From an uncultured Acidobacteriota bacterium (GTDB taxonomy: Bacteria > Acidobacteriota > Thermoanaerobaculia > UBA5066), in contig CAVZYA010000003.1 of assembly GCA_963779415.1 (NCBI GenBank), positions 1,617 to 65,616 on the forward strand: a stretch of DNA of 64,000 nucleotides, written 5' to 3'. Positions 4,279-34,256 of this stretch are shown here, in pieces. The notes under the pieces are model-generated. The model was not told where the DNA came from. It saw nothing but the letters and a program-made list of their open reading frames with translations, and did not search any database. How positions within the stretch are numbered: the first letter of the stretch is position 1; each line of letters begins with the position of its first letter. The position numbers were made by a program, and so were the translations under genes.

Positions 4279-4500
4279 TTCGGGGCGACTCTCGGAAAGA
4301 GCGTGAATCTCGGCTCGTTCAAGGGATTTGAAGGGGGGAAGAACGGATCGATGAGGATGAGTCAATTCGGTAAAGAGCAGATCGGCCCGCCGGTGCGCTT
4401 CGGTCTGGGAGCCTACGATCCCTGCTTGAACTCTGGCACTGGCACCGCGTCTCCCTCCCCGAACCCGAACGGTCAGTTGGTGCCGGTCTAGGACAACTTC
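4279..4500 (+). mobile_element. Degenerate remnant of an IS3-family left end plus a truncated orfA start
   Basis: 4279-4400 aligns by eye with the left end of the intact IS at 8431-8550: tc(a)ggggc(c/g)(g/a)ctctcg(a/g)aaa..., ...ggatcgatgagga. The derived peptide MRMSQFGKEQIG compares with MRKSRYTEEQIA, and the frame then collapses. Confidence 0.5.
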
Positions 4501-4750
4501 TTCTGCGTGTTCTACCGGTCCTACGTCCAGGCGCCGCCCGGTGAAGGTCGCCGGGAGTGCCCGACGCCGGGCTGCAAGTGGCCGACCGGGTTCGGGAAGT
4601 TCGCTACACTGCCGCAACGATCGAGGAGCGCGGCGAGGGCCTGAAACTTAGAGGCCGCCTTCAGGTCGGCTTCGTCCAGAAGATCTCGCCGACCGTTCAG
4701 GCCCCGCCGGCTAGAGCAGCATGGCGTGAGCTCCTTCGGGTCACGAACGG

Positions 4751-5011
4751 TCAGGAGGTCTCCCCGCTTCCGTCCTCCAGGCCTAGCAAAGGAGCCACGA
4801 CGGCGCCGAGAATCTCGGCCGTGACTGTCGCCTCGAGGCGTGTCGACTCGGCGAGACCGGCTCGCCGGCTCTGGATCTCATTGGCGACTTCCTCGGCTAC
4901 GTCAGGATCAGCGGCCCGCAGTCGCCGGGCGAGCTGGACGGCGACGGCGAGAAGTTCGGCGCGACCGGCCTCGACCTGCTCGAGAAGGTCCCGAAGGTCC
5001 TCGGCTGGCAA
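4751..5011 (-). CDS. Hypothetical small helical protein (86 aa)
   Basis: The ORF has a non-shadow composition (acidic, helical) and lies directly downstream of 5063..5377 on the same strand. No recognisable family. Confidence 0.35.
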   Translation of the reverse strand: MPAEDLRDLLEQVEAGRAELLAVAVQLARRLRAADPDVAEEVANEIQSRRAGLAESTRLEATVTAEILGAVVAPLLGLEDGSGETS

Positions 5012-5062
5012 CGGGGTGGACGTCTATCCGCGACGGCTTCGAATCGGGCGGCGGCTGCCAGA

Positions 5063-5377
5063 TCAGTTCGTCGGCTCGAAAAGGATCTCGCCGACCAGCT
5101 CGCTCCCCGTGTCTCGGATGATCGAGATGAGGATCGTTTCCCCGCGAAAATCCATGAGGACGTCCTCCGTCTCCGGGTTGTACTTCTCGACGGCGGCGTG
5201 AACCGAGTCGATCAGACTCGTCGCGTCCGGCTCGCTTTCGAGGTTCTCCACCAGCTCCGACGGGAAGGCGTAGCGCAGCGGCTCCTGATCGTCGAGCTGG
5301 AGGACGAATCCGCGGCCGTTCTCGCGAAAGGCGTGCCGAGCGAGCCGGAGCAACTCTTTCTGGTCCAAGTGCCGCAT
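5063..5377 (-). CDS. Hypothetical protein (104 aa)
   Basis: Balanced amino-acid composition, unlike the Arg-rich shadow frames. ATG start, divergent from 5538..6356. No recognisable family. Confidence 0.5.
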   Translation of the reverse strand: MRHLDQKELLRLARHAFRENGRGFVLQLDDQEPLRYAFPSELVENLESEPDATSLIDSVHAAVEKYNPETEDVLMDFRGETILISIIRDTGSELVGEILFEPTN

Positions 5378-5537
5378 CGTTTACGCGAGAGATTATCCGC
5401 ATCGCTGACCCGTTCCAGCTTCCGAGCGCAAAGACTTCGGCGTAGGCTTGAGATAGAATCTCGGTCGCATGGCCCGGCGAGCGATCTGAAACGCGGTCCC
5501 TTCCGGGCGGAGGACCGATGAACAAGGAGGGACGCTC

Positions 5538-6356
5538 ATGAAGCCAAGGCCATTTCTAAATTCCGGTTTCGTAGCGACCAGCGTCATCGTCACGTTGATC
5601 GTCTCTTCCGCTGGCGCCCGCGCGCAGGTGCCCGGGCGCGGAGATCCGGACAAGTACGGCAGCGCTCGCGTGACGGGTACGGCGTCCGAGGTGGGTATTA
5701 CAGGAGCCCGCATGCCGGACTGGGGGACCAGTTCGACGAGCATTCTGAGGATCGGGTCGAGTAGCTTCGCTCCGAACTCTTCGTCCAGTCTCTGGGATGG
5801 GGCCGGCGGCTGGCTGATGGGAACTAACCCGGCGCAACCGCCACCGCTTCACTTTTCGGCGAGCCTCCAACTTCCGTCGGGTGCGCTGATCAAGTCGTTC
5901 GCTGCGGAGGTCTACGACAACTCTGGGCCCGGGGACATTACCGTCTGGATAGAAGCCTGTCAGAACCTGAACGGTGCGTGCGTAACCACCCCGACCGTTA
6001 CGACATCTGGAACGCCGTTGTTCATGTGGCTCACCAGTACGTTGTCGTCTCCGATCACCATCGACAACAGCGCGAACAACTACGTCGTCTGGGTCGACCT
6101 GGGATCGCGCGACCCGGGCAACGCTTTCCGTAGCGTGGTCATCAACTACCAGCTTCAGGTCTCGCCGGCTCCCGCGTTCGCCACGTTCGCCGACGTCCCA
6201 GTGGGTAGTACGTACCACAGGTTCGTCGAGGCCCTCTACGCGGCGGGCATCACGGCCGGATGCGGGGGCGGGAACTTCTGCCCCAACACGCCGGTCACGC
6301 GCGGCCAAATGGCGGTATTCCTTTCTGCAGCCCTCGGCCTCTACTGGCCCAACTGA
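5538..6356 (+). CDS. Secreted protein with a C-terminal Cys-containing SLH-like module
   Basis: An N-terminal hydrophobic signal is followed by AGARAQ. The C-terminus FADVPVGSTYHRFVEALYAAGITAGCGGGNFCPNTPVTRGQMAVFLSAAL matches the module repeated at 1-470. Confidence 0.8.
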   Translation: MKPRPFLNSGFVATSVIVTLIVSSAGARAQVPGRGDPDKYGSARVTGTASEVGITGARMPDWGTSSTSILRIGSSSFAPNSSSSLWDGAGGWLMGTNPAQPPPLHFSASLQLPSGALIKSFAAEVYDNSGPGDITVWIEACQNLNGACVTTPTVTTSGTPLFMWLTSTLSSPITIDNSANNYVVWVDLGSRDPGNAFRSVVINYQLQVSPAPAFATFADVPVGSTYHRFVEALYAAGITAGCGGGNFCPNTPVTRGQMAVFLSAALGLYWPN

Positions 6357-6465
6357 GCTTCTTTCCGTCGCGCTGATTCCACTCTCAGGAGAAGGCTTCG
6401 GCCGAGCTGAGGCTCTGGTCCGGGCAACTCATCTTCAAGAGCGGCGGCGGGTCCTCGCGGTAAAT

Positions 6466-6700
6466 GTAAGGGCGCAATGGGAATTGCCGGGGGCGATCTC
6501 GCCTAAAACGTGCGGTCCTCTCCTCGAGTTTCCTTGGTTCCGTTCGGCCAGACTGGCACTCTGCCCGGATGGACGCTCTCTATGCGTTCTTTCCGGTACG
6601 GTCGACTCGGCTGTCCCGGCCATCCCGCCGGAGGCCGTTCGATCCATCCGGCAGCGCTTTCAGCCCTCCGACGCGCTATCCATCTCCCCGTCCGCGCCCT
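6466..6700 (+). repeat. Repeat family A, copy A1 (terminus plus about 210-nt core)
   Basis: Starts gtaagggcgcaatgggaattgccggggg. It aligns with A4 over about 210 nt and with A2, A3 and A5 over about 70-130 nt. Confidence 0.8.
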
Positions 6701-6836
6701 CGGCTCGAGTTCTGGTCCGGACGAATTACCGGGGTGAAGAGCCCCTGCTGAGGACGGTCCCGAGCCGTCGGCCGACATCCGAGACGGAGTTGGCGAGATT
6801 CGCGTATTCTCGAAGAGGCCCGATCGCGGGTCGCAA

Positions 6837-7289
6837 ATGCAATCCTTTGTCGAACATCGTCACGCACTGGTCAACTTAGGCTGCGCCGTATTTCTCGTCG
6901 TCCTGACGTGGATCGACTACGTCACCGGTTACGAGTTCGGCTTCTTCATCTTCTACTTCATCCCCGTTTCCATCGCCGCCTGGTACGTCGGCCGCAGGTC
7001 TGGCTTGGCGTTCGCGTTCGCCTCGGGCGTGGCGTGGTACGTCTCCGACCGGCTGAGCCTGCATCCCTATTCGAAGGTGTTCTTCATCTACTGGGAGACG
7101 TTCATGCGCCTGGTCTCGTTCCTCACGACCGCGCTGACACTCAGCAAGATCCGGGAGCTCGCGTCGGCGCACGTGAAGCTCCGGGAGTTCCTGCGGGAGG
7201 CGCACGAGGTGAACGCGGACCTGAAACGGAAGCTGGAGCAGGCGGCACCGGGACGCGAGAACCCCGGCGGCCGGCCCCCGGACGCCTGA
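6837..7289 (+). CDS. Small integral membrane protein (about 3-4 TM segments plus a coiled-coil tail), resembling a stand-alone sensor-type TM module
   Basis: Hydrophobic segments (FFIFYFIPVSIAAWYVG, LAFAFASGVAWYV, FMRLVSFLTTALTL) are followed by a charged helix. The family assignment (DUF4118-like) is only an impression. Confidence 0.65.
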   Translation: MQSFVEHRHALVNLGCAVFLVVLTWIDYVTGYEFGFFIFYFIPVSIAAWYVGRRSGLAFAFASGVAWYVSDRLSLHPYSKVFFIYWETFMRLVSFLTTALTLSKIRELASAHVKLREFLREAHEVNADLKRKLEQAAPGRENPGGRPPDA

Positions 7290-7345
7290 CGACTTCTTGC
7301 TGCGACCCGCAAACCCTTCTGACTACACGAACTTTAGACACGAAA

Positions 7346-7366
7346 CCCCGCGACGTCGTCGCGGGG
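7346..7366 (+). terminator. GC-rich hairpin downstream of 6837..7289
   Basis: ccccgcgac-gtc-gtcgcgggg forms a 9-bp stem. There is no clean U-tract after it (cattcgtt). Confidence 0.4.
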
Positions 7367-7407
7367 CATTCGTTAACCGCGGACCCCTCTGGAGTTCGCG
7401 GGAGAGA

Positions 7408-7551
7408 GTAGTGGCTCCCCACTCGGTCGGCTACACGAACCCCGTTCTCAGGCAGAACAGAGAACATTCAACCCGTTCTCAGCCCCGAAACGCTTCCGAT
7501 TCAATGAGTTGACCCAGGGATGCGCGGAGCCTCCGTGAAACTACGACCCCA
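7408..7551 (+). repeat. Repeat family B, copy B1 (144 nt); candidate structured RNA or transposon-internal module
   Basis: Same length as 12739-12882 and about 75% identical by eye. The ends gtagtggctcccc...gcggag(c/t)ctc(c/t)gtga.act.c.acccca are conserved and can pair (GGCUCC/GGAGCC; GUAG/CUAC). Confidence 0.7.
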
Positions 7552-7606
7552 CTCTCCTGTTCGATGTCGGTTGACCTCTTCGCACCGCCCGACCTAACGT
7601 GCCCTT

Positions 7607-7936
7607 GTGGGCAGAACTCCGAAACGCATCCTCGCCGCCCGGGCCATCGCGGTCCTCGCGGACGCCATTCAGCTCGGGTTCCTGCCCCTATTCGCAGGAG
7701 GAGCGCCGGAGGGATTCGATGCCGCGCTGGACCTCGTGGTTTGTGGCGCGATGATCGTGCTCGTCGGGTGGCACTGGGCCTTTCTTCCGGCCTTCATCGC
7801 CGAGGCTCTCCCGGGCGTGGATCTCGCGCCCACGTGGACTCTGGCCGTGCTCTTCGCGACGCGCGGGCAGAGTCGAACGAACGTCCCCGCCGAGGCCATC
7901 CGTATAGAGCCGCCACGGCTACCTCCAGCCAAGTAG
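7607..7936 (+). CDS. Small membrane protein (109 aa), unknown function
   Basis: GTG start. Two or three hydrophobic helices (AIAVLADAIQLGFLPLF, LVVCGAMIVLVGWHWAFLPAFI, WTLAVLFA). Confidence 0.5.
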   Translation: MGRTPKRILAARAIAVLADAIQLGFLPLFAGGAPEGFDAALDLVVCGAMIVLVGWHWAFLPAFIAEALPGVDLAPTWTLAVLFATRGQSRTNVPAEAIRIEPPRLPPAK

Positions 7937-8133
7937 TCCCTAGCAGCATGGGCGCAACGGGCTCTTCCGGTCACCGATGCGGCCTGACGTGCGTTCGGCG
8001 AGCAGACGAGCGACGGCGGAACGTTGGCCTTCCACCGCCGGGACGGACCCCGACTCCGTCATGGCGAGAGTATACAGGCCGCGATTGAGACACAGGGGGC
8101 CGGCCCGGCGAGCGCAGGAACCTCTTCGACTGA

Positions 8134-8410
8134 AGCACCTATGCCCCCGTCTGGAAACCTTACGGGATTCTGGCGAGGCACAGGGGCCCGGATTCGTCGA
8201 GCCTCACGGTGTGGGACCGGAACAAACTGCCCGCGGAGGTCGATCGGGTGGACCTAGCGACGGGACGCCGAACGCGGGTCCTCACCGTTCTCCCCGCCGA
8301 CCCGGTCGGAATCCCGGGAATCCAGGGGCTCCAGATCACCCCGAACGGCCGGGCCTACACCTACAACGTCACCCGCAAGCTATCCGAACTCTTTCTCATC
8401 GAAGGGGGTC
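8134..8410 (+). pseudogene. 3' fragment of a TolB-like/WD40-like beta-propeller gene (as found on Ser/Thr kinases), truncated upstream and hit by the IS at its 3' end
   Basis: The frame gives ...VWDRNKLPAEVDRVDLATGRRTRVLTVLPADPVGIPGIQGLQITPNGRAYTYNVTRKLSELFLIEG, a typical last propeller blade. There is an in-frame stop just upstream at 8131-8133, and neighbouring frames look like decayed continuation. Confidence 0.5.
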
Positions 8411-8503
8411 TGATCCCCGATTCTTAGTCAGGGGCCGCTCTCGAAAAGGGGCGTAGATTTCGGTTCGTTCTGAGGCTCCGGGAGGGGCCGGGAGGACGGA
8501 TCG

Positions 8504-8770
8504 ATGAGGAAAAGCCGGTACACGGAAGAACAGATCGCGGTGGCCCTGCGTCAGGGAGAAGCGGGGACGCCGGTGGAGGAGATCTGCCGGAAGATGGGCG
8601 TGGCTGAGGCGACGTACTTTCGGTGGAAGAAGAAGTACGCGGGGCTTGGGGTGACGGAGCTTCGGGAGCTGCGCCAGATCCGGGAGGAGAACCGGAAGCT
8701 GAAGGGGATCGTGGCGGACCTGACGCTGGACCGGACGATTCTGCAGGAGGCCCTCCGAAAAAAATGGTGA
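8504..8770 (+). CDS. IS3-family transposase OrfA (HTH)
   Basis: MRKSRYTEEQIAVALRQGEAGTPVEEICRKMGVAEATYFRWKKKYAGLGVTELRELRQIREENRKLKGIVADLTLD is a classic IS3/IS407 OrfA. Confidence 0.9.
   Translation: MRKSRYTEEQIAVALRQGEAGTPVEEICRKMGVAEATYFRWKKKYAGLGVTELRELRQIREENRKLKGIVADLTLDRTILQEALRKKW
8758..8764 (+). promoter_or_regulatory. A7 slippery run for programmed -1 frameshifting from orfA into orfB
   Basis: cgaaaaaaatgg. orfA reads R-K-K-W-stop, while the -1 frame reads ...PKKMVRPAQRRVVVAW... and continues as OrfB. Confidence 0.7.
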
Positions 8771-9638
8771 GGCCCGCGCAACGCCGGGTGGTCGTGGCGT
8801 GGGCCGAGTCCTCGTACCGGGTTTCGCAGTGTCGAGCATGCCGGCTTTTGGCGGTGAATCGGTCGAGCGTGCGGTACCGAAGCCGAAAGCCGAGCCAGGA
8901 GCCGCTGAGAAGGCGACTGCGGGAGCTTGCGGGGGCCCGGACACACGCGGGGTATCGGCAGCTGCACGTCTACCTCAGGAGGGAGGGCTGGAAGATCAAC
9001 CACAAGAGGACCTACCGGCTCTACATCGAGGAAGGGCTGGGGCTGCGGCGAAAGCGGCCGAAGCGGCGGCGGAGTGCGGCCGAAGGGTGGAGCAGCCGAA
9101 GCCTCAGAGGCCGAATGAAACCTGGGCGATGGACTTCATGCACGACACGCTGGCCGACGGCGGCCGCCTGAGGGTGTTGACTGTCATCGACACGTACACG
9201 CGGGAATGTGTCGCCCTCGAAGCGGCGTCGTCCTTCCGCCGAGGAGACGTCGCGAAGATCCTGGGAACTGCCGGCAGGACCCGTGGCAGTCTGCCTCGGC
9301 GAATCCAGGTTGATAACGGGACGGAGTTCACCTCGAAGGCCCTGGACGCCTGGGCTTACTGGAATCACGTGGAGCTGGTCTTCTCGAGGCCTGGGAAGCC
9401 GGTCGACAACGCCTACGCCGAGTCCTTCAACGCCACGGTCAGACGAGAGTGCCTCTCACAGCATTGGTTCCGAGACCTCCTGGATGCCCGGGAGATCCTC
9501 GGAAGGTGGAAGGAGGAGTACAACAACGAGCGGCCCCACAGCAGCCTGGGGCTCGAAACGCCGGCCCGGTACCGGGCCGGACAAACAGAGGACGCGAACC
9601 GGATCGAAGCCCGAAAACTCGCAGAGCTACCTGGCTAG
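8764..9638 (+). pseudogene. IS3-family transposase OrfB (DDE integrase core) with one extra frameshift near 9083-9087
   Basis: The N-terminal part (...YRLYIEEGLGLRRKRPKRRRSAAE) is in one frame. The catalytic part (RVEQPKPQRPNETWAMDFMHD...VDNGTEFTS...NERPHSSLG) is in another. The junction gccgaagggtgg would be restored by one extra A (gaa agg gtg). Confidence 0.75.
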
Positions 9639-9732
9639 AAATGGGGTGAGGACCCAAGGGCTCAAGTCACACGCCCCAAGTGGCTCATCTTTGGGGAGCA
9701 GGTCGCCGAGCGTCACACCCTACCGGCCCTCG

Positions 9733-11310
9733 TCAGTATGCGTCACCCGTGTCTCCATGCTCGAGTATCAGCGGATAGCCGGAGTTCGCTGTTGCCTGTC
9801 CGGTGATGTTGTCGATCATGGTTGTCATGGCGAGAAGGTTGGGGTGGTCGCTCACGCCGGGATACCTCGGGACGCTGATCTTGAGTCGTCCGCTTCCGAG
9901 ATGGCATTGCGTGAGGATGTGGTTGACTTGCGTCATTTCCAACGTCCGCAGGCTAAGATTGATGGTACCTGCTTGGTTACCGTCGTCGTCGTATGCCGTG
10001 ATGGTGACCGGTTGGCTCTTGATGCGCTCGTTCGCATTAAGAAGCGTGAGGTTCGTGCGGTAGTTATCGTCTTCTCGCAGGCCGTTGATGCTCAGGACGA
10101 TGTGCTCGGTCGTGTCGCTCGCGTCGTTATTCCTGTTCGTTGCGCCTGTCGTGAGAGCCGGGATGTTGACTCCTGTCGTGCCGAGGTCGCTGCTGTCCTT
10201 CGTGATGGTGTTGTAGGTGCGCGTCGCGGCGTGGAGTGGGTGCGAACTCTGTAATCGCAGGGCGCCGTACTGGCCTGGCGTGGAAAGGTAAGTGCCGACG
10301 ACGTCGTCGAGCGAACGCTGCTCTTGACTGTTGAGGACGATGAACCGTGGTGTCGCTGTGCTGTTGTCGTTGTTCGCCACGAGGAGTGTCGTGGCGAGCT
10401 GCACGTTGTCGTCAAAGGTGCTGTTCAGGGTGATGCTGGTCTTCCAGGTCGTGTTGTCCGCGCCCGCCGTGTTCGCGGTCGTGACGACCCACTGGTCCGT
10501 GCTGGAGGGGCTACGGCTGAATGGGCTGTTGACCGTGGGCGCGTTGCTCTTGTTGTCGTTGATGCTGATGTAAGCGCCAACGCCGCCGTTCGTCACGTCC
10601 AGGTCAACATAACTGTCAGGCCATCCCGTCCCGAAGAACGTGGTCATGCTCTGCTGCAAGACGCTCCACGGACCCAGCGTGACCGTCTTCGTGCTCAGAG
10701 CGTTGCCCATGTTGTCACGGAGCCTGGCCGTGATCGTGCTGGCCTGGTCGGTCGTGAAGAAGGTGATGTTCTGACGGAAGTCGACGGTGCCCGGCGCCCC
10801 ACTCACACGAGCCGGCACGGTCTGGTTCAGGAGACCGGTCGACGGAATCGTCGGGATAGTGCTCCCGAGCGTGCCGCCAAGCAACGGGCTCCCCGCGTCC
10901 GTCACGAGGTTATACGTACGCGCTCGCGCCTCAAGGTCGGCCGGGTCTTGATTCGTCGTGACGGTCACGACACCGAACGTACCGGGCTTGTTGAAGAGCG
11001 TGAGCGCGATGTCGGAGAAGTGCACGGACTGGCCTGACGTGATTGTCGGAAGAGCGACGCAGTCCCGCGAGCCCGTGTTACTGGCGTAGCAGAGCGTGAG
11101 GGCGGCGTCGACGTCATGATTCGTGATGTCGAGGTCTGTCTGCCAGTGACTCCCCTTCTGGCCGGGCGTGTTCGCGACGCCAGGAAGGAGATAGTCGACC
11201 CTGGCGGGGGGCACGACCTGAGCACGAGCCTCGATAGGAAGAGAAGCGAAGCCGGGTAAGACGGTGATGACGACGAAATGAACGGCGGCAGCGCGCGTAA
11301 GAATCATCAC
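9733..11310 (-). CDS. Secreted protein of unknown function built from three copies of an uncharacterised domain of about 150-170 aa
   Basis: Signal peptide MMILTRAAAVHFVVITVLPGFASLPIEARAQ. Recurrent motifs are HWQTDLDITN, ARTYN, RTNLTLLN and a D/N-rich end. GC is visibly lower than in the core genes. Confidence 0.8.
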   Translation of the reverse strand: MMILTRAAAVHFVVITVLPGFASLPIEARAQVVPPARVDYLLPGVANTPGQKGSHWQTDLDITNHDVDAALTLCYASNTGSRDCVALPTITSGQSVHFSDIALTLFNKPGTFGVVTVTTNQDPADLEARARTYNLVTDAGSPLLGGTLGSTIPTIPSTGLLNQTVPARVSGAPGTVDFRQNITFFTTDQASTITARLRDNMGNALSTKTVTLGPWSVLQQSMTTFFGTGWPDSYVDLDVTNGGVGAYISINDNKSNAPTVNSPFSRSPSSTDQWVVTTANTAGADNTTWKTSITLNSTFDDNVQLATTLLVANNDNSTATPRFIVLNSQEQRSLDDVVGTYLSTPGQYGALRLQSSHPLHAATRTYNTITKDSSDLGTTGVNIPALTTGATNRNNDASDTTEHIVLSINGLREDDNYRTNLTLLNANERIKSQPVTITAYDDDGNQAGTINLSLRTLEMTQVNHILTQCHLGSGRLKISVPRYPGVSDHPNLLAMTTMIDNITGQATANSGYPLILEHGDTGDAY

Positions 11311-11402
11311 GTTCTCCGAGGCAGACGGAACGGAATATACGCGATCGCGCGTTCGGCTCGTGAGAGCCGGGAACCTGGTGCGGTCGGTATGACCTTCTCA
11401 CT

Positions 11403-11535
11403 GTAGGGGCGCAATGGGAATTGCCGGCGGCTATCCCGTCTAGAAAGTGCGGCTCTGTCCCGAGTTTCCTCGGTTCCGTCCGGCCAGACTGGCATTCTGC
11501 CCGTACGGGGACCCTTCATGCGCTCTTCTTGCCAG
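11403..11535 (+). repeat. Repeat family A, copy A2
   Basis: ctgtaggggcgcaatgggaattgccgg...ggttccgtccggccagactggcattctgcccg aligns with A1, A3 and A4. Confidence 0.8.
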
Positions 11536-11757
11536 GGCTGGCGATGAGATCACCTTCGTCCGGCGGCGGGGCCGCCAGCGTGTCCATTAGAAAACCAAGA
11601 CTCTGCAATCTCGGTCCTCAGAATCGCCTTCGAACGCGGAGACAAGCACCTCCTGCCCACCGTCCCTGCTTGAGGCTGATAGCATTGAACCGGAGTTCCT
11701 GTCACGCATGAGCCATCTCATCAAGGACAAGAAAAGGCTCATCGCCCGGCTGATCCC

Positions 11758-12495
11758 GTGAAGTTCGCCTTGCTTCTTCTCGGAAGCGTAGTTGCGGCGC
11801 GGGCCGCGGTCGCCCCCCCGGCGGTCGGGACACCTGTCCTCGTCGAGCTCTTCACGTCGGAAGGCTGTTCAAGCTGCCCGCCCGCGGACCGGCTCCTCGC
11901 GCGCCTCGCCGCGAAACAGCCGGTTCCCGGTGCGCTCGTCGTGCCGCTCTCCCTCCACGTCGACTACTGGAACCGCCTCGGCTGGGAAGATCCTTTCTCG
12001 TCGCAGCGTTACACAGAGCGCCAGAGCGCCTACTCCGCGCACTTCGGCGGCTCTGGCCGCGTCTACACGCCGCAGATGATCGTGGACGGCTGGACGGAAT
12101 TCGTCGGAAGCGACGAGCGCGCCGCGCGGCGCGCGATCGAGGCCGCCGCCCACGAGCCGAAGGCATTCGTCCGGGTCGCTCCGAACGGCGCGGGCGCCGT
12201 GTGCGTGACTGTCTCGGGTGCCGAGGCCGGGGCCGACGTCCTCGTTGCGGTCATCGAGGACGGCCTCGCCTCAGACGTCACGCGCGGCGAGAACGCCGGG
12301 AAGCGGCTCGTGCAAGCTGCCGTTGCGCGTGAGCTCCACGTTGCCGGCAGGGTCGACGCAGCGGGCCACTTTGACGCCGTGGTGCGCGTCTCGAGCGGAG
12401 CGGGCGAACGCCGCGTCCTCGCGTTCGCGCAGGAGCGTGGCCTCGGCCGCGTCATCGGCACCTCGGTACCAGCAGACCTCCCGCCAGGACGCTGA
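11758..12495 (+). CDS. DUF1223 family (thioredoxin-like fold) secreted protein
   Basis: GTG start and a signal peptide. VLVELFTSEGCSSCPPADRLL...HVDYWNRLGWEDPF...YTPQMIVDG is characteristic of DUF1223. Confidence 0.85.
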   Translation: MKFALLLLGSVVAARAAVAPPAVGTPVLVELFTSEGCSSCPPADRLLARLAAKQPVPGALVVPLSLHVDYWNRLGWEDPFSSQRYTERQSAYSAHFGGSGRVYTPQMIVDGWTEFVGSDERAARRAIEAAAHEPKAFVRVAPNGAGAVCVTVSGAEAGADVLVAVIEDGLASDVTRGENAGKRLVQAAVARELHVAGRVDAAGHFDAVVRVSSGAGERRVLAFAQERGLGRVIGTSVPADLPPGR

Positions 12496-12515
12496 CTATT
12501 CGGAACCGGAAATCT

Positions 12516-12640
12516 GTAGGGGCGCAATGGGAATTGCCGGGGCTACCTGGCGTAGAAGTGCGGCCCTATCCTCTGGTCTCCTCGATTGCGCCCGGCCAGG
12601 TTGTCATTCTGCCCGGTCGGAGGTTCTCCACAGAGGCTCG
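12516..12640 (+). repeat. Repeat family A, copy A3
   Basis: gtaggggcgcaatgggaattgccgggg...ggccaggttgtcattctgcccgg starts 20 bp after the stop of 11758..12495. Confidence 0.8.
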
Positions 12641-12738
12641 CCACAGATTTCCCCACAGTCGGGCGAAACTAAGATTGCATCGGGCGTGAGTTTCTGAACC
12701 AAAAATGACTGCCGACCTGTTGGCCGGCAGCCGGATAA

Positions 12739-12882
12739 GTAGTGGCTCCCCAGTCGGTCGGCTGTGCGAACCGTGTTCTCTGTCTTTAGAGCTGAAATTC
12801 AACTCGTTCTCAGTCCAGAACCGTCTTCTGAATTAATGGGTTGCCCCGAAGTGTGCGGAGTCTCTGTGATACTGCTACCCCA
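12739..12882 (+). repeat. Repeat family B, copy B2 (144 nt)
   Basis: See B1. The homology continues more weakly to the shared gggcagaac motif at 12924-12932 (7609-7617 at the first locus). Confidence 0.7.
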
Positions 12883-12971
12883 GAACAGCGAAGGGCCCTG
12901 AAGTAGGCCGACGTGCGCCCGCCGGGCAGAACCTCAAAGGCGAAATGCTGGTCTTCGAGGGCCAGGACGAA

Positions 12972-12993
12972 CCGCAATACCCTTCGCCCTCCC
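12972..12993 (-). repeat. Degenerate inverted copy of the family-A terminus; possible right end of a composite A3-B2 element
   Basis: The reverse complement gggagggcgaagggtattgcgg matches the consensus gtaggggcgcaatgggaattgccgg at about 17 of 25 positions with 3 gaps. It is preceded (as the reverse complement of 12925-12970) by a diverged inverted piece of the A core (cggttcgtcctggcc...ttctgcccgg). Confidence 0.4.
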
Positions 12994-13127
12994 TTAATGA
13001 GCTGGTTAGGAAAGCCGCCGGCGGCGATGGGCTGCGGCGAAATCGGAACGCCGGATCGGACACGCCCCCGAATCCGCCCATCAAGGCGGCAATGGACCTG
13101 ATGTAGCCTTGAAAGGGGGGATTCACG

Positions 13128-15863
13128 ATGATGTCCACGAGGACGAGAAGGGGCAGCGTACCCTGCGATAGCCTAGCGGTCGTCGGTTGCATGGCCCTAG
13201 GGCTCGTCAACTTCTCTGCTCAGGCTCAGAAGAGCGCCACGAAGCTGGTTCCGATCGTCCTGGACCTGACGACGACGAGCCCCGCCGAGCACTTCCTCAG
13301 CGAGCTGACCCTGGCCAACCGCGGCACGACGACGGCGTCCGTCCTGCTCACCTACACGCCGGCGACGGCCCTCGGCGCCTCCGGCGCCGGCACCGCCAGC
13401 CTCTCCCTTTCCGCCGGGCAGCAGTTCGTCGTCTCCGACGCCATCGGCTTCCTCCGGAGCAAGGGGCTCGCGATCCCGACACCGTCCGCAAGCCAGGGAG
13501 GAACTCTTCTCGTCTCCTTCACGGGCCTCTCTTCTTCGGACGCCGCCTTTGCCGGAGCACGGACGACGACTCCTTCCGGTACCGGAAGAGCCGGCCTCGC
13601 CTACCCCGGCGTCGATCTCTCCGCCGCCCCCACCGGTCCGTCGTACCTTTACGGCCTTCGCGCCAGCACGACGGATCGGACGAATCTCGCCCTCGTCAAC
13701 GCCGGGAGCGCCCCCGTCACGCTCCGCGTCACCCTCTTCTCCGCCGACGCCGGCGACAACCGCTCCTACGTCATCTCCCCCGACACGTCTCTCGACCCCG
13801 GCCAGTGGACCCAGATCGGCCACATCCTCGACAAGGCCGGCTACACCAACGGCTACGCCAAGGTCGAGATCGTCTCGGGCGCGGGGCCTTACGTGGCCTA
13901 TGCCGTCTTCAACGACTTCACCACCAATGACGGCTCCTACGTCCCCCTCGAGCCGGCCTCTATGCCCGCTGAGATGCGGCTCCTCCCGGTCCTCACCGAG
14001 AGCGGCTCCTTCCAGAGCGAGCTGGTCCTGACGAACCCGGCGAGCGTCCCACGGACCGCCACGCTCTCTTACGTCGAGTCGCACTCCCCGTCGGGCGGAG
14101 CTGGAGGAACGCTCACGCTCAACTTCCAGTCGGGGGAGCAGAAGATCATCCCCGGCGCGATCGACTACCTCCGCCAGAACCACGTCGCCATCGGGGCCAA
14201 GGGAGCGGCGACGTATGCCGGAGCGCTCTCCGTCACTTTCTACAATGGCTCGAGCGTCTCCACCGGCTTCGTCGGAGCCCGGACGGCCGCCCCCGTCGCC
14301 GGCACTCCTCCCGGTGAATATGGCCTCTTCTACGCCGGCGTCGGCCCCAGCTTCGCCGCGACCTTCGAAGCCTGGGTCTACGGCCTCGAGCAGAACAGCG
14401 GTAACCGCTCGAACCTCGCCGTCGCGAACCTCGGGGACGCCGGCGACTCGATCACGTACCGGATCGACGTCTACGACGGAAACACGGGGCTGCTGGCAGG
14501 CTCGACGGCCCCGGCCCCTCTCGGCCCGGGGGGCTGGGCGCAGGTCAACGGAATCTTGCACAGCTCGGGCCTCAACGTGGCCGGCGGCTACGCCCACGTC
14601 GTGAAGCTCTCCGGCAACAGCCGCTTCCTCGCCTACGCCGTCGTCAACGACGGCGGCGCCGCAGGCCAGGGAACCTCCGACGGAAGCTACGTCGCCGGGA
14701 TCCCGGTCGCCCCGATTGCCTCTTTCTCGGTGGGGCCCGACATCACGCTGACGTACCCGAGCCTCCCCGTTCTCTCCGACGAGCACACGACCGTGATGCC
14801 GTCCCCGACGACACCGGGCTCGTACCTCGTCTTCGCCGCGAACACGCGGAACGCCAACGGCCTCGCGGGGGCCGTCGTCCTCGAGACGACCGACCTCCGG
14901 ACGTTCACGTTCGCAACCGGCTACACGTCACCCGTGATGACCGCCGCGTGGCCCTTCATGACCTGCAAGGCGTTCTGGGACCCCGAATTCGACCTGAACT
15001 ACGCCTCGCCCGGCTCGGTCGTGCAGGACCCGACGCGCCCGGCCGGGAACTTCATCATGATCTACGAGGCCGAGAACCACTGCCCCGGCGCCGTCTGGCA
15101 GCACGACTTCTACGCCACGGTGGGGTTCGCCCGGTCGTCGGACTACGGAAAGAGCTGGCCGCAGCCCGTCGACGCGGAGATGGGCGGGACGGACCGCTAC
15201 CCCGTCCTGAAGCACCCGACGCCCGAGCCGTCGACCCCCGAGAGCCCGCAGGTCGCGCTGGGCAACGCGATCCCGAGCGCCTTCGTCGACGGGACGAATC
15301 TCTACGTCACGTATGCGGCGCCGAACCCGACTTCCGACGGGATGGTCCGGATGGCGCGGACGGCGCTGGGCGGGAGCGGCACGATCGCCTTTTCGAAGTG
15401 GTACGAGGGCTCCTTCGGCCAGCCCGGCCTCGGGGGCCTCGACAGCGCCGTCCTCCCCGCCAAAGGGTGCACCGGGCACCAAGGGATGGGCCAGGTCAGC
15501 TACAACGACGCGCTCGGCCTCTACCTCTTCACGTTCGTCTGCTCGGGCACGAGCGCGGGCGCCTGGTACTACTCGACGGCGACGAGCCTCGACCACCAGA
15601 ACTGGGCGGCACCGCAGATGATCGACGGCTCGCAGTACCCGATCGTCTCGGGCTGCGCCACGGACGGGACCGGCACGTCGTTCGACGGGTGGTATCCGTC
15701 GTTCGTCTCCCCCGGGACCCCGGCGGGCCACACGTCGACGTCCGGGTCGGTCCTCTACATGAGCGGCTGCGACCGTGGGAGCCGGACCTTTCTCGCGAGG
15801 TCATTCACGATCGCATCGCCTCCGCGGCCGTCGGCCGTGGCCGATAAGCCCCCGGAGCAGTGA
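13128..15863 (+). CDS. Large secreted protein with three copies of the same uncharacterised domain as 9733..11310, plus a C-terminal domain of about 370 aa of unknown function
   Basis: A good SD (aaagggggg) precedes ATG, and there is a signal peptide. Recurrent motifs are LSELTLANRGTT, GARTTTP, DRTNLALVNAG and YAVFNDFTTNDGSYV. The C-terminal region is rich in W, Y and G with no family I can name. Confidence 0.85.
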   Translation: MMSTRTRRGSVPCDSLAVVGCMALGLVNFSAQAQKSATKLVPIVLDLTTTSPAEHFLSELTLANRGTTTASVLLTYTPATALGASGAGTASLSLSAGQQFVVSDAIGFLRSKGLAIPTPSASQGGTLLVSFTGLSSSDAAFAGARTTTPSGTGRAGLAYPGVDLSAAPTGPSYLYGLRASTTDRTNLALVNAGSAPVTLRVTLFSADAGDNRSYVISPDTSLDPGQWTQIGHILDKAGYTNGYAKVEIVSGAGPYVAYAVFNDFTTNDGSYVPLEPASMPAEMRLLPVLTESGSFQSELVLTNPASVPRTATLSYVESHSPSGGAGGTLTLNFQSGEQKIIPGAIDYLRQNHVAIGAKGAATYAGALSVTFYNGSSVSTGFVGARTAAPVAGTPPGEYGLFYAGVGPSFAATFEAWVYGLEQNSGNRSNLAVANLGDAGDSITYRIDVYDGNTGLLAGSTAPAPLGPGGWAQVNGILHSSGLNVAGGYAHVVKLSGNSRFLAYAVVNDGGAAGQGTSDGSYVAGIPVAPIASFSVGPDITLTYPSLPVLSDEHTTVMPSPTTPGSYLVFAANTRNANGLAGAVVLETTDLRTFTFATGYTSPVMTAAWPFMTCKAFWDPEFDLNYASPGSVVQDPTRPAGNFIMIYEAENHCPGAVWQHDFYATVGFARSSDYGKSWPQPVDAEMGGTDRYPVLKHPTPEPSTPESPQVALGNAIPSAFVDGTNLYVTYAAPNPTSDGMVRMARTALGGSGTIAFSKWYEGSFGQPGLGGLDSAVLPAKGCTGHQGMGQVSYNDALGLYLFTFVCSGTSAGAWYYSTATSLDHQNWAAPQMIDGSQYPIVSGCATDGTGTSFDGWYPSFVSPGTPAGHTSTSGSVLYMSGCDRGSRTFLARSFTIASPPRPSAVADKPPEQ

Positions 15864-15919
15864 GCGAAAGGAGCACGGGGATGACCGACAGCGCGATGAG
15901 GTCCGGCTTGATCTGGTCT

Positions 15920-16257
15920 GCAGGGGCGCAATGGAAATTGCCGGAACTATCTCGCCTAGGAATTGCGGTCCTGTCCTCCGGCTTCCTCGGTTCCGTCCGG
16001 CCAGACTTGCGTTCAGCCCGGACGGGGGCTCTCCATGCATTTCTTCCGGAACCGTCGACTCCGCTGTCCCGGCGATCCCGGCGGGGGCCGTTCGGTCCAT
16101 CCGGGAGAGCCTGCCGGTTCTCTTTGGGAACACCGAATAGAGCCTAAACGGGACCCGGTCGGAGCGAAGACTCGAAAAGCTGAACCTGTGTCCAATAAGG
16201 GTCCCTACCACGCCTTTCGCCTTTTCGCGCTCGTCGCAATTTCCATTGCGCCCCTAC
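15920..16257 (+). mobile_element. Family A copy A4: 338-bp MITE-like element with 22-bp terminal inverted repeats
   Basis: The left end is gcaggggcgcaatggaaattgc (15920-15941). The right end gcaatttccattgcgcccctac (16236-16257) is its reverse complement with 1 mismatch. No ORF lies inside. Confidence 0.8.
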
Positions 16258-16279
16258 AATCTATGGCACCATCTCACGT

Positions 16280-16927
16280 ATGACAACGATCGGACTCATC
16301 GGAGCGGGCCACATCGGAAGCCAGGTCGCGCGCCTCGCAGTGGCGCACGGCTACAACGTGGTGATCAGCAACTCGCGGGACCCCGGGACGCTCGCGGCGT
16401 TCGTGAACGAGCTCGGCCCCAGAGCCCGTGCCGCGACACCGGTCGAGGCGGCGAAGAAGGGAGACATCGTCGTGGTGACGATCCCCCTCAAGAACATCCG
16501 CAGCGTTCCCGTGGAGCCCCTGGCCGGAAAGGTGGTAATCGACACGAACAATTACTACCCGCAGCGCGACGGGCAGATCCCCGAGCTCGACGACGAGGTG
16601 ACGACCACGTCGGAACTCTTGCAAGCCCACCTTCCGAAATCGAAGGTGGTCAAGGCCTTCAACCAAATCTATGCCGCAGAGCTCACGACCCACGGGCAAC
16701 CCGCGGGCACTCCGAACCGCCGCGCTCTGGTCATCGCGGGCGACGACCCGTTAGCGAAGGCCACCGTCAGCGAGATGCTCGACGCGTTCGGCTTCGACAC
16801 GGTCGATGCGGGTCCGCTGAAGGAAGGCTGGCGCATCCAGCGCGACACGCCTGGCTACGGACCACGGCGCAACGCCGAGGAACTGCGGAAGGACCTCGCG
16901 GCGGCGAAGCGCTATCGGGACCGGTGA
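16280..16927 (+). CDS. NADPH-dependent F420 reductase-like / NAD(P)-binding oxidoreductase
   Basis: MTTIGLIGAGHIGSQVARLAVAHGYNVVISNSR is a Rossmann GxGxxG motif. The ...VVKAFNQIYAAEL...GDDPLAKATVSEMLDAFGFDTVDAGPL pattern is typical of the NpdG/F420-reductase family. Confidence 0.8.
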   Translation: MTTIGLIGAGHIGSQVARLAVAHGYNVVISNSRDPGTLAAFVNELGPRARAATPVEAAKKGDIVVVTIPLKNIRSVPVEPLAGKVVIDTNNYYPQRDGQIPELDDEVTTTSELLQAHLPKSKVVKAFNQIYAAELTTHGQPAGTPNRRALVIAGDDPLAKATVSEMLDAFGFDTVDAGPLKEGWRIQRDTPGYGPRRNAEELRKDLAAAKRYRDR

Positions 16928-17000
16928 CGCGATCTCCCGGCACGGCAGAGACGGAGAAGGTCTCGCGGTGATCTGGGCTCCCTAGACGGTACCCGGGAGT

Positions 17001-17097
17001 GTAGGCGCGCAATGGGAGTTGCCGGGGTCTGTAGGGGCGCAATGGGAATTGCCGGGGGCTATCTCGCCTAAGAGCTGCGGCTCGGTCCTTCGGTTTC
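17001..17097 (+). repeat. Family A copies A5a (28-bp terminus only) and A5b (terminus plus about 65 nt of core) in direct tandem
   Basis: gtaggcgcgcaatgggagttgccggggt is followed by ct and then gtaggggcgcaatgggaattgccgggggctatctcgcctaagagctgcggctcggtcc. Confidence 0.8.
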
Positions 17098-17925
17098 ATG
17101 GGCCACCGGCGCGTCGAACTCTTCGCCCCGGCACCACCGCCGGTACACGTCTATCTCCTCGAGCGAGGCGTAGTCGCCAGCAATCCGGTCCGCGAGGTCG
17201 ACGATCCAGGCGGGCGCGTCAGGGTGCTCAAACGTCCGGATGATCGGCTGGTCGACAGGGACCGGCGCAACGGCGCTGCCGTTCTGAACCCTCGGCTCAA
17301 CCGCGATTTCGGCCCGCTCTTCGGGCACTTCCGGGGCCCCCTTCCGCTGGGCGCTCAGCGTCCGCTCCGAGCTTGGCGGCGGGGATTCGTGACGGCCTTG
17401 GGCGGGACTTCTGGCGGCAGGCTCCGCTCTCGTTCGGCGTGGGATCACAGCCGGTCGATCATCGAACCTCCCCTCTAGCACCTGGGCTCGAGTCTCCGAC
17501 AACAGCAAGAAGTCGAAGCTCGCCCGCCAGCCTCGAGGGCCGGCGCCGTTGCATCGCCGGCTCCGGGCCATCCGCTCTACGACCTCGCGCCAGATCGCGA
17601 GGTCGGGACACTCGGAGAGCCGGGCCACTGCAAGCTCGCGTTGCCCCTGAGCCCTCCGCCTTTCGGGGAGTCGGCCACGATGCTCGTCCCATACTGCGCC
17701 GAGGGAGTCGAGCGGCGTTGTTCTCGTCCGCACCACCGTGACATCACCCCGATCCCTGACCGCCACAAGCCCTCCACCAAGTCGATACGCCTTAACTTCC
17801 GAGAGTGCCAACTTTTCCACGATCCACGATCGCGAACGATCGTGTCGCTCGGCCAGAACGGAAAGGGCATCGACGGCCGCATGGGAGAGGTAGAGCGAGG
17901 TGCTCTTATGCGGTACCTTTGCCAT
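17068..17925 (-). CDS. Mobile-element-type protein with an N-terminal ribbon-helix-helix and a phage replication-protein-like C-terminal motif
   Basis: KSTSLYLSHAAVDALSVLAERHDRSRSWIVEKLAL is RHH-like. ...WRASFDFLLLSETRAQVLEGRFDD resembles the conserved phage replication/DnaD-like C-terminal motif (inference). The last 10 codons lie inside repeat A5b. Confidence 0.65.
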   Translation of the reverse strand: MAKVPHKSTSLYLSHAAVDALSVLAERHDRSRSWIVEKLALSEVKAYRLGGGLVAVRDRGDVTVVRTRTTPLDSLGAVWDEHRGRLPERRRAQGQRELAVARLSECPDLAIWREVVERMARSRRCNGAGPRGWRASFDFLLLSETRAQVLEGRFDDRPAVIPRRTRAEPAARSPAQGRHESPPPSSERTLSAQRKGAPEVPEERAEIAVEPRVQNGSAVAPVPVDQPIIRTFEHPDAPAWIVDLADRIAGDYASLEEIDVYRRWCRGEEFDAPVAHETEGPSRSS

Positions 17926-18124
17926 GGAATCTACCGTGCTTCTCCCGCACGCCCATCACGGTCCAACAACATGGTTTTCGAGCGAGATAGGAGGCTAGGG
18001 CAAGCGCGAACGGCTCTTCCTCTCGGTCGCCGAAGTTTCGCGCTTCGGATGCGAGCAGACCGGCACCCGGCCGCCGCGTGCTTGGCACGACTAACTGGCT
18101 TCTCTTCCGGCTCCCTGAGACGGC

Positions 18125-18568
18125 TCACGGAAGGCCTCCGCGCCAACCCAAGCCCTGGGGCCCGATCGGGCTTTCTAGGTCTCCCCGCCGCTTCTGTGCT
18201 TGACGGTATCTCGCAAGAGCGGCGATCCCCGCCGCCGGCGCCGGGCGCTTGAGCTTCGCCCGGAGGAGGTCGAGGACGGCGGGAGCGTCGGCCACGTCGA
18301 AAAGCACGGTCGCTTCCCCGTCCCCGACTTGATGGGGACGAGCCCCGGCGGTGGCGAGGAGGTCGAGGGCCTTCCCGGCGTACCGTGTCGTGATCCACGC
18401 CTGAAGCGTCGTCCTGCCGTGGGGGTAGACGAACGCCTTCCAGCGCCAGCAGGGGATCTCGAAGTTCCAAGGGTCTCGCCACTGGCCTGGGGCGTGGTCA
18501 AGAGACATTCGAATCCGGTGTTTCGGAAGCGCTTCCTCGAGGTTGATGCACCAGGGCTCGGCACTCAA
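18125..18568 (-). CDS. Hypothetical protein; the true start is possibly the internal M at MSLDHAPG
   Basis: This is the only non-shadow-looking frame between the RHH gene and tRNA-Sec. No recognisable family. Confidence 0.45.
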   Translation of the reverse strand: MSAEPWCINLEEALPKHRIRMSLDHAPGQWRDPWNFEIPCWRWKAFVYPHGRTTLQAWITTRYAGKALDLLATAGARPHQVGDGEATVLFDVADAPAVLDLLRAKLKRPAPAAGIAALARYRQAQKRRGDLESPIGPQGLGWRGGLP

Positions 18569-18786
18569 GGGCGGCCTCCCGCATTCGCCACGGGGCGCGC
18601 TGTGCCGTGATCGACGATCTCCGAAGGGGATGGGCAGCGCCCGACAGCGCGGGCTTCAGCGAGGCGACTTTTCCATGGGCTCGTTCGTGGGCTCGTTTGG
18701 GCTCGTTCCCGGTGCCAGGCTGCGAAAAGAGTGCCACGCGGAAGTGATTCATCCACAAGGACCGCGTTGCACGGGTTAGCACTGAA

Positions 18787-18885
18787 TGGCGGAAGCGTGT
18801 GGGAGTCGAACCCACCCGCCGCCCCTCTCGGAGCGAGCACGCTGGTTTTGAAGACCAGGAGGGCCACCGGGCCCCTTTCGCTTCC
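18787..18885 (-). tRNA. selC: tRNA-Sec (anticodon UCA)
   Basis: The reverse complement is GGAAGCGAAAGGGGCCCGGUGGCCCUCCUGGUCUUCAAAACCAGCGUGCUCGCUCCGAGAGGGGCGGCGGGUGGGUUCGACUCCCACACGCUUCCGCCA. It has anticodon loop CUUCAAA, a 6-bp D stem (GGGGCC/GGCCCU) with a 4-nt loop, a long variable arm and a GUUCGACUCC T-loop. The GGAAG...CUUCCGCCA ends match E. coli selC. Confidence 0.9.
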
Positions 18886-18894
18886 GGGCGGATT

Positions 18895-31469: not shown

Positions 31470-34256
<2,787 letters not shown>

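Follow-up and report, generated by a model that had tools for sequence, protein, structure and literature searches.

What kind of repeat returns after gene upon gene, in one direction, within a single part of a bacterial genome? In the window, by which we mean the whole 64-kb stretch of DNA analysed here, a preliminary description had noticed six copies of a short terminus with a longer shared core (family A), and had likened the layout to a cassette array while also considering MITE insertion into a hot spot and a common leader element. Here we report that family A is, with a probability of about 0.8, the left end of a hitherto uncharacterised insertion sequence (IS), and that the copies in the window are transposase-less fragments and miniature derivatives of it.

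Scanning the window for GTAGGGGCGCAATGGGAATTGCCGG, the terminus, with a tolerance of 3 mismatches returned + strand matches at 6466, 11403, 12516, 15920, 17001 and 17031, compared with 0 matches over 100 shuffles, which bears out the six same-strand copies first reported. Family A was found by neither BLAST nor nhmmer (E<=10) in the ~53 kb that remain outside 6465-17099. Five independent sites lie inside 10.6 kb of 64 kb (p=0.003), all on one strand (p=0.06 for the window alone). When the copies were compared with the window by BLAST, c1 and c4 were seen to have a core of 188 nt in common (6470-6657 and 15924-16110), while c2 shares ~127 nt, c3 ~116 nt and c6 ~70 nt, and c5 consists of the terminus alone (28-30 nt), in 30-nt tandem with c6. 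The copies agree on their left and diverge at different points, as had been noted, their nhmmer matches to the left-end model ending between positions 129 and 192 of 221.

The repeat begins 109, 20, 56 and 73 nt past the preceding stop codon at four copies, and at three the next + strand ORF starts 372, 356 and 361 nt from the start of the repeat, much as described. The proposed placement behind a + strand gene does not extend to c2, which is flanked by the divergent genes 9733-11310(-) and 11758-12495(+) and is 92 nt away from where the former starts. The genes between the copies are unrelated to one another, and all four downstream genes run in the same direction as the copy upstream of them. 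Matches to Rfam at gathering thresholds were limited in the window to a tRNA-Sec, and tblastn found there no transposase of family A or remnants of one. The sole mobility gene in the first 21 kb belongs to an unrelated IS3 copy; this element (~8440-9700) was considered as the parent and rejected, its ends being unrelated to family A. The window sequence is present in four soil or sediment metagenomes (depth ~2-5, contigs of 150-260 nt), and these independent contigs confirm two of its junctions, 16219-16388 at c4 and 16791-17052 at c5/c6.

The identity of the repeat becomes apparent in related genomes. A terminus scan of the genome collection returned 83 stretches, nearly all from MAGs of Acidobacteriota/Thermoanaerobaculia, and in L023, L069, L064, L002, L072, L017, L011, L068 and L076 a transposase ORF comes next after terminus and leader. 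The order in these MAGs is terminus, ~105 nt of leader, the start codon of a DDE (rve) transposase of 413-427 aa and, ~120 nt past its stop codon, an inverted terminus. Because terminus and leader are joined there to a transposase start codon, family A can be understood as an IS left end, made up of the left inverted repeat (IRL), the leader and the first codons. Copies c1, c2 and c4 align with transposase-bearing left ends up to and including the RBS and ATG (c1 with those of L069, L002, L064 and L072), and in c1 and c4 the match extends over the first codons.

These observations recast several earlier impressions. The repeat had been called non-coding, which has to be qualified for c1, c2 and c4, since they hold the transposase RBS and ATG (6582, 11518 and 16035) and, in c1 and c4, first codons as well; that no transposase accompanies it is correct inside the window but not in related MAGs, where the transposase follows terminus and leader. 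The notion of a leader element was literally right, the core being the 5' leader of the IS itself, and repeated MITE insertion into a hot spot was essentially so, the copies being non-autonomous IS derivatives and solo ends that cluster here and elsewhere. Of the related genomes, in which a search for an autonomous copy had been advised, L023, L069 and others contain transposase-bearing copies. The copies are accounted for as solo ends of an IS that shares their termini, the explanation that the preliminary description had set against its array, though this IS is neither annotated nor named. Among these loci no clean intact copy with both ends and undisturbed flanks was recovered, and L023 contains nested insertions.

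The intact IS would measure ~1.55-1.6 kb, and the element occurs in soil and peat Acidobacteriota (Thermoanaerobaculia). Its terminal inverted repeat (TIR) is ~26 nt long (TGTAGGGGCGCAATGGGAATTGCC) and encloses a dyad, GCAAT-N4-ATTGC, that is probably the transposase binding site. The ~105-nt leader carries an RBS, and would have to hold the transposase promoter in addition. The right end, modelled from 19 copies, spans ~120 nt and finishes in the inverted terminus, and an imperfect inverted-repeat likeness of the two ends reaches ~60-70 nt. We found 36 complete TIR-bounded elements of 95-2100 bp, with ends reading TGTAGGGGCGCAATGGGAATTGC ... GCAATTCCCATTGCGCCCCTACA and thus an IS481-like 5'-TGT start; in all, related loci hold 272 to 286 inverted-repeat matches over ~0.45 Mb, depending on whether 4 or 5 mismatches are allowed. 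At these other loci rve is the only recurrent mobility family in 120 neighbouring genes.

The transposase is a single ORF of 413-427 aa without a programmed frameshift, uninterrupted in L023, L069 and many database homologues, in which an N-terminal extension of ~95 aa accompanies an HTH domain and then an rve-type DDE domain (D232, D293, E329; spacing 61/36 residues). It passes the Pfam cut-offs narrowly (rve, 32.8 bits against 32.6; rve_3, 28.5 against 26.5), and its best NCBIfam models are IS481 (NF033577, 95.1 bits, matched over model positions 2-284 of 284) and then IS3 (76.7 bits), both below the curated cut-offs of 224 and 160. Matches in a plasmid collection were all distant, at 27-30% identity to annotated IS3-family transposases. 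The element would accordingly be a distant relative of IS481 and IS3, a weak family assignment. It resembles them as a single-ORF element of ~1.5 kb with an N-terminal HTH ahead of an rve-type DD(35)E core, TIRs that start TGT and end ACA, and frequent placement at gene 3' ends, and differs from them in its low scores and identities, in the N-terminal extension, in target-site duplications that are not detectable and in a left inverted repeat that is often in 30-nt tandem, with end similarity reaching well beyond it. Databases hold 479 homologues, typically of ~413 aa and for the most part located on few-kb contigs, labelled merely 'transposase InsO family'.

The window contains no autonomous copy but two MITEs (c3 and c4), three left-end-only fragments (c1, c2 and c6), a solo inverted-repeat unit (c5) and a decayed right end (Table 1). 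Two of these features had been overlooked, so that the inventory was incomplete at c3, where the right end closes a full element, and at c4, where an inverted 23-nt terminus makes the copy a TIR element.

Table 1. Family A and family B features in the window (LE, left end; RE, right end; IRR, right inverted repeat)
Feature	Position	Strand	Content	Evidence
c1, LE fragment	6465..6657	+	IRL 6465-6490, leader, transposase RBS, ATG 6582-6584, ~25 degenerate first codons	nhmmer LE model E=3e-14; terminus scan, BLAST
Family B module, copy 1	7298..7566	+		78-80% identical to L014, L006, L015
Decayed RE remnant, weak	7984..8057	+	no recognisable terminal inverted repeat	nhmmer RE model 41-114, E=2.3e-5
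c2, LE-only fragment	11402..11531	+	perfect 25-nt IRL, leader, transposase ATG 11518-11520	nhmmer LE model E=4e-17
c3, complete 476-bp MITE	12515..12990	+	LE 12515-12634; spacer with - strand terminator-like hairpin 12707-12732; family B module 12732-12882; RE 12882-12990 (109 nt), closing in degenerate IRR	terminus scan; nhmmer LE and RE models (RE E=4.6e-21)
c4, 340-bp MITE	15919..16258	+	LE 15919-16110, with transposase ATG 16035-16037 and 5' codons; inner ~125 nt unique; 23-nt IRR 16236-16258	BLAST; nhmmer LE; IRR 22/23 nt complementary
c5, solo 30-nt IRL unit directly abutting c6	17000..17029	+		terminus scan
c6, LE fragment	17030..17099	+	perfect IRL and ~45 nt of leader	nhmmer E=1.5e-22 for 16990-17099

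MITEs, MICs and solo inverted repeats are recognised IS derivatives (PMC3129680). Copies c3 and c4 are short and non-coding, carry the inverted repeats of their cognate IS at both ends and belong to a multi-copy family, as MITEs do, and c5 is a solo inverted repeat. Family A departs from both MITEs and MICs in that flanking direct repeats are absent and many copies are a left end only, and the co-orientation within its clusters falls outside the definition of a MITE. Elsewhere, family B is an internal module of family A MITEs lying between the two ends, as in L015, where 7265-6678 reads left end, family B, right end. No right end adjoins c1; the weak right-end remnant further on may bound with it a 1.6-kb decayed or cargo-bearing element (6465-~8075) enclosing gene 6837-7289, a tentative suggestion. 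The start codon of gene 16280-16927 lies 21 nt past the end of c4, and c6 is cut off where the - strand ORF 17068-17925 ends. The tandem duplication of the IRL seen at c5/c6 recurs in >20 copies in other genomes, transposase-bearing ones included.

Target-site duplications are normally generated by rve-type transposases. Here, 35 TIR pairs showed no excess of matching flanks of 2-9 bp over mismatched-pair controls, the c4 flanks GATCTGGTC and ATCTATGGC bear a doubtful resemblance at most, and a comparison of filled with empty sites gave one-sided matches (L079/L073, L011/L034, L075/L025) and no empty site spanning both borders. Exchange of flanks by recombination may account for this absence.

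The layout of the window is a reproducible trait of the family. At 82 other loci, left ends that neighbour each other share an orientation in a ratio of 82:20 (80%), pairs >1 kb apart included, and left ends follow closely on the stop codon of a gene that runs towards them, 3-110 nt downstream, in a ratio of 66:23. The latter fits published work in which IS481, IS3 and other families are over-represented between convergent 3' ends (PMC9208149). Single-gene intervals read left end, gene, left end in one direction in 23 of 36 cases, and on contigs of 947, 1127, 467, 718 and 594 kb every exact match falls inside one region of 8-24 kb. Left ends outnumber right ends by 203 to 51, an excess that is partly an ascertainment effect; in L004, L009, L023, L028 and L050, left-end leaders contain nested insertions of the same orientation. 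Downstream genes are oriented at random (31 sense to 27 antisense, or 35:37 by another count), and transposase-bearing copies hold no fixed place relative to the arrays. Neither synteny with the window nor linkage to tRNA genes was found at the other loci.

Co-orientation of neighbouring copies is a real, family-wide bias, and random insertion followed by decay predicts by itself neither this ratio nor the excess of left ends. Selection on a polar leader and orientation-specific, end-targeted insertion are candidate causes. Replication direction was rejected as a cause, the direction of left ends being unrelated to local GC skew (p=0.57, 47 loci), although 8-kb segments are noisy and the test is a weak one.

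A transposase-based gene-cassette system would make more of this bias. Single genes would lie between IS ends, and oriented arrays would arise from a directional step, for example insertion beside a resident left end in fixed orientation or one-ended left-end transposition carrying variable adjacent DNA; on this view each gene-repeat unit would be a working cassette and not debris. Co-orientation, the intervals of left end, gene and left end, the nested insertions into leaders and the varied right-hand break points that one-ended events would produce are all consistent with such a system, as is the F420-type oxidoreductase gene 16280-16927. This gene recurs at ~89% nucleotide identity in L065, L034, L060 and L025, with homology that stops at or just past the borders of the ORF; each time, a family A end lies ~45-130 nt beyond the stop. 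MIC-like units with a passenger gene are present in other genomes: L065 6619-7826 runs right end, last transposase codons, oxidoreductase gene, left end, and L073 4018-5468 holds an alpha/beta hydrolase gene flanked by two inverted left ends. In the window the tentative unit 6465-~8075 would be the sole candidate of this type, with a right end that is weak (E=2e-5).

In the window, however, the genes lie outside TIR pairs, c3 and c4 are empty, the intervening genes are unrelated, and the oxidoreductase is the only gene that recurs beside the repeat elsewhere. Random orientation of downstream genes, the lack of target-site duplications marking discrete units and the free position of transposase-bearing copies also speak against functional cassettes, which we consider unlikely. 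Were they real, directional assembly would be a DDE-transposase analogue of integron cassette arrays in Acidobacteriota, the oxidoreductase gene would be a circulating cassette, and the family would give soil bacteria a means of shuffling accessory genes one at a time.

Position and orientation could alternatively be set by a domesticated regulatory role, the left ends being kept as the terminator of the upstream gene or the promoter of the downstream one and acting as mobile control elements much as REP-like 3' elements do. Such a role would suit left ends that sit shortly past the stops of genes pointing at them, a leader that must hold a transposase promoter and RBS, the shared direction of the four downstream genes in the window, and the b-type leader, in which a hairpin (paired in 87% of cells) and a T-tract directly precede a TTGAC motif. 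Yet downstream genes across loci are co-directional no more often than the near-even count given above, four window left ends fold as single sequences no better than shuffles (z -1.05 to +0.26), the b-type hairpin lacks compensatory changes or covariation, and promoter and terminator scans of 5400-17400 gave nothing above chance, so that we give very little credence to domestication. A structured RNA was likewise dropped, since RNAalifold on 20 b-type leaders yielded -3.6 kcal/mol and one compensatory pair, and the single-sequence folds of the four left ends do not surpass shuffles; so was a general upstream promoter cassette, given the random orientation of downstream genes.

Two further readings, an attC array like that of integrons and a REP/RAYT-type repeat acted on by a tyrosine or HUH recombinase, are already contradicted: co-oriented repeats that closely follow functionally unrelated ORFs within a variable region do recall integrons and CALINs, and a short GTAG-initial unit with a small hairpin, extragenic at gene 3' ends and occasionally in tandem, is superficially like REP sequences and BIMEs, but no Phage_integrase, resolvase, Y1_Tnp or similar domain occurs in the 76 ORFs of window positions 1-21 kb or among the recurrent families of the neighbouring genes at other loci (thus neither IntI nor a nearby Y1/HUH gene), the R''/R' core sites and the GTTRRRY/RYYYAAC pair are absent from the repeat as read, which forms no attC hairpin with R''-L''/L'-R' sites, its copies are truncated and vary in length with downstream genes oriented at random, the stem is 5 bp, and the unit forms the TIR of a DDE element of 1.5 kb. 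Without a site-specific recombinase or attC-like architecture, the cassette array originally suggested finds no support as a mechanism, even though a few copies elsewhere carry single passenger genes.

If family A is an IS left end, the layout could have arisen in a few steps. Copies c3 and c4 would be internally deleted elements that kept both ends, and c1, c2 and c6 would have lost everything rightward. Such derivatives would be mobile only with transposase provided in trans by another locus of the genome. Insertions may have gathered in one permissive, lower-GC, IS-rich segment, and copies would persist just 3' of stop codons, where harm is least. Recombination and deletion among the crowded copies could then have stripped away transposase genes, right ends and target duplications, so that mainly left ends remained, with right-hand break points that vary.

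The repeat is ordinary in kind, and its same-direction clustering is a consistent habit of the family A IS. The copy-bearing intergenic gaps at 6.4-17.1 kb can be seen as largely IS debris and not regulatory DNA of host genes, and a conspicuous repeat family of a poorly studied phylum now has an explanation. The ends, leader, transposase and MITE/MIC derivatives are defined here for an IS lineage that databases call 'InsO family transposase', together with its departures from textbook IS3/IS481 behaviour: strong local clustering, 80% co-orientation and no detectable target duplications. Many terminus matches lie <100 nt from contig ends, for which reason family A repeats are probably the cause of many contig breaks in Acidobacteriota MAGs.

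We report that family A, the six-copy repeat of the window, is best understood from its sequence as the left end (LE) of an insertion sequence (IS) distantly related to IS481/IS3. The 25-nt terminus lies on the + strand at 6466, 11403, 12516, 15920, 17001 and 17031, where chance would place none, and when each copy was compared with the window by BLAST, the shared cores measured 70-188 nt and broke off at differing points; the preliminary description had both right. Neither BLAST nor sensitive profile searches found a seventh copy in the remaining 53 kb.

A degenerate 22-mer of the terminus, run against a single genome for each species, yielded 83 stretches, nearly all from Acidobacteriota/Thermoanaerobaculia MAGs (peat, palsa, Danish soils) and many no more than 100 nt from the end of a contig. 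Their left border is sharp, with flanks unrelated as far as (C/G)TGTAGGGG, and when the ORFs of these loci were clustered a single mobility protein recurred: about 132 nt after the terminus, GGGAGCCCTTC-ATG opens a 413-427-aa ORF (loci L023, L069, L064, L002, L072, L017, L011, L068 and L076). In the product an HTH region precedes an rve core, with Pfam scores barely over cut-off (rve 32.8 bits, rve_3 28.5 bits) and a D232, D293, E329 triad spaced 61/36. The nearest curated models are IS481 (95 bits over a full-length match, cut-off 224) and then IS3 (77 bits). Annotated plasmid IS3-family transposases share only 27-30% identity, and 479 homologues in the protein database, mostly from contigs just a few kb long, carry the sole name "transposase InsO family".

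About 120 nt past the stop codon the element terminates in ...GCCGCAATTCCCATTGCGCCCCTACA, which is the left terminus inverted. Its right end (RE) is conserved across 19 aligned copies, and the imperfect similarity of the inverted repeats (IR) reaches about 60-70 nt inwards. Aligned with transposase-bearing LEs, window copies c1, c2 and c4 extend through the RBS and transposase ATG (6582, 11518 and 16035), c1 and c4 reaching into the first codons, past which no transposase remnant was found in the window. It is the conjunction of terminus, transposase ORF, inverted RE and this alignment that argues for an IS left end, of a lineage previously undescribed in Acidobacteriota. The GCAAT-N4-ATTGC dyad of the IR is a putative binding site for the HTH domain. 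There was no evidence of conserved RNA structure in the leader (the part up to the transposase ATG), and no Rfam family matches it.

Copies of family A in the window, and of the oxidoreductase gene in other MAG loci
Feature	Position	Structure
c1	6465-6657	LE only
c2	11402-11531	LE only
c3	12515-12990	Complete MITE (transposase-less miniature with both IS ends): LE, spacer, family B module, RE (RE E=4.6e-21)
c4	15919-16258	340-bp MITE, 23-nt inverted termini; ends 21 nt before ATG of gene 16280
c5	17000-17029	30-nt IR unit, tandem with c6
c6	17030-17099	LE only
Oxidoreductase gene, L065	7044-7691	
Oxidoreductase gene, L034	3079-3727	
Oxidoreductase gene, L060	1424-2093	
Oxidoreductase gene, L025	343-457	

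Two parts of these structures had been overlooked: a 23-nt inverted terminus at 16236-16258, and the opposite end of the element at 12882-12990 (109 nt). Family B (7298-7566 and 12732-12882), formerly taken for an unrelated repeat, behaves as an internal module of the MITEs of this element, lying between LE and RE; L015 (7265-6678), for instance, has the order LE, family B, RE. Its copies are 75-80% identical and widespread in the same MAG loci (L014, L006, L015, L054, L066, L040 and L076). Tandem IR units of the c5/c6 type occur in more than 20 copies in other genomes, some of them transposase-bearing. A weak RE remnant at 7984-8057 (E=2e-5) suggests, tentatively, that a single 1.6-kb element, now decayed and holding gene 6837-7289, may span 6465 to about 8075. 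Within c3, minus-strand 12707-12732 resembles a terminator, a strong hairpin of 11 pairs with ATTTTTGG after it.

As a type the feature is ordinary: a family of MITEs and solo ends derived from an IS, lying in a segment of lower GC that is rich in IS elements; what sets it apart as worth attention is its co-orientation and clustering, both robust, together with missing target-site duplications. In the window, five independent sites fall inside 10.6 kb of 64 kb (p=0.003) and share one strand (p=0.06 taken alone). Across 82 independent loci in other genomes, neighbouring LEs are co-oriented 82:20 (p=4e-10) in all distance classes, including >1 kb; LE direction is uniform in 20 of the 29 loci having at least three LEs, and REs match the local majority direction 29:5. 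On contigs of 467-1127 kb all exact hits are confined to one 8-24 kb region. LEs outnumber REs 203:51, or about 58:35 once the LE-specific search pattern is allowed for, and no 2-9-bp target duplication was detectable in 35 inverted-repeat pairs. Gene orientation alone does not account for the co-orientation, since adjacent genes are co-directional just 61:38, and local GC skew also fails as an explanation. Nested same-orientation insertions in LE leaders (L004, L009, L023, L028 and L050) hint at end-targeted, orientation-specific insertion.

The siting past gene ends also extends beyond the window. In the window the stop-to-repeat distances are 109, 20, 56 and 73 nt, as described; copy 2 comes after the start of a minus-strand gene, not after a plus-strand stop. 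In the other loci the outer-side gene points towards the LE 66:23 (p=6e-6), its stop codon usually 3-110 nt from the terminus, and 23 of 36 single-gene intervals between LEs read LE, gene, LE in one direction. Such siting would reflect purifying selection, and agrees with published IS481/IS3 positional biases (PMC9208149). Target duplications, REs and transposase genes could have been lost as the crowded direct repeats recombined and underwent deletion. The window copies would be immobile unless transposase were supplied in trans. Paralogues of a ~900-aa Ser/Thr kinase with TPR-like repeats adjoin LEs in 15 loci (including L019, L013, L076, L025, L058, L044, L031, L023, L041, L027 and L032), the end usually 7-110 nt past the stop; the window paralogue, 31470-34256, is without the repeat.

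Mobile insertion cassettes, as defined in PMC3129680, fit some relatives. Four other MAG loci have a copy of the F420-type NADP oxidoreductase gene 16280-16927, at ~89% nucleotide identity. Homology gives out at the borders of the ORF or slightly past them, and in every locus the stop is followed after about 45-130 nt by a family A end. In L065 the gene is flanked by an RE, with the last transposase codons still following, and an LE, an arrangement that by sequence is such a cassette; in L073 two inverted LEs enclose a hydrolase gene. The reading does not clearly apply to the window array, because there the oxidoreductase gene sits outside the flanking elements.

The evidence weighs against a cassette-array mechanism: the repeat is not organised like attC, rve is the commonest family among 120 genes neighbouring it in other genomes while recombinases of the tyrosine, serine and HUH types do not recur there, and the first gene downstream of the LE is co-directional just 31:27 and 35:37 in two counts across loci. 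Because that direction is near-even, the distance of 356-372 nt from repeat to next ORF (372, 356 and 361 nt) is a trait of the window, not of family A; for c4 it is simply MITE length plus 21 nt. The 76 ORFs between 1 and 21 kb of the window contain no mobility domain other than the IS3 rve. By eye, fragments in four repeat-rich loci (L052 3259-4221, L076 2661-3140, L044 27-422 and L025 71-457) resemble the C-terminal part of a large serine recombinase; no full-length copy was found among them and no tie to the repeat established.

A neighbouring IS3-family element at ~8440-9700 (orfA 8504-8770; orfB 8799-9638, with rve and rve_3) was rejected as the parent of family A, its ends being unrelated. 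The A-rich run GAAAAAAATGG at the end of its orfA could act as a frameshift site. A tRNA-Sec gene (18787-18885, minus strand) marks a G+C step from 62-66% (1-19000) to 68-73% (20000-64000). The segment to its left, rich in repeats and abutting its 3' end, may be an island that is plastic or was acquired horizontally; no integrase was found for this candidate island. Further left, 1710-3649 is a 150-nt tandem array (12.8 copies, 76% identity; alternative period 459 nt) within a pair of + strand ORFs rich in arginine (1478-3007 and 3008-3844), whose frame failed the third-position GC coding filter, and at 3-457 a 234-nt unit is repeated 1.9 times at 96% identity.
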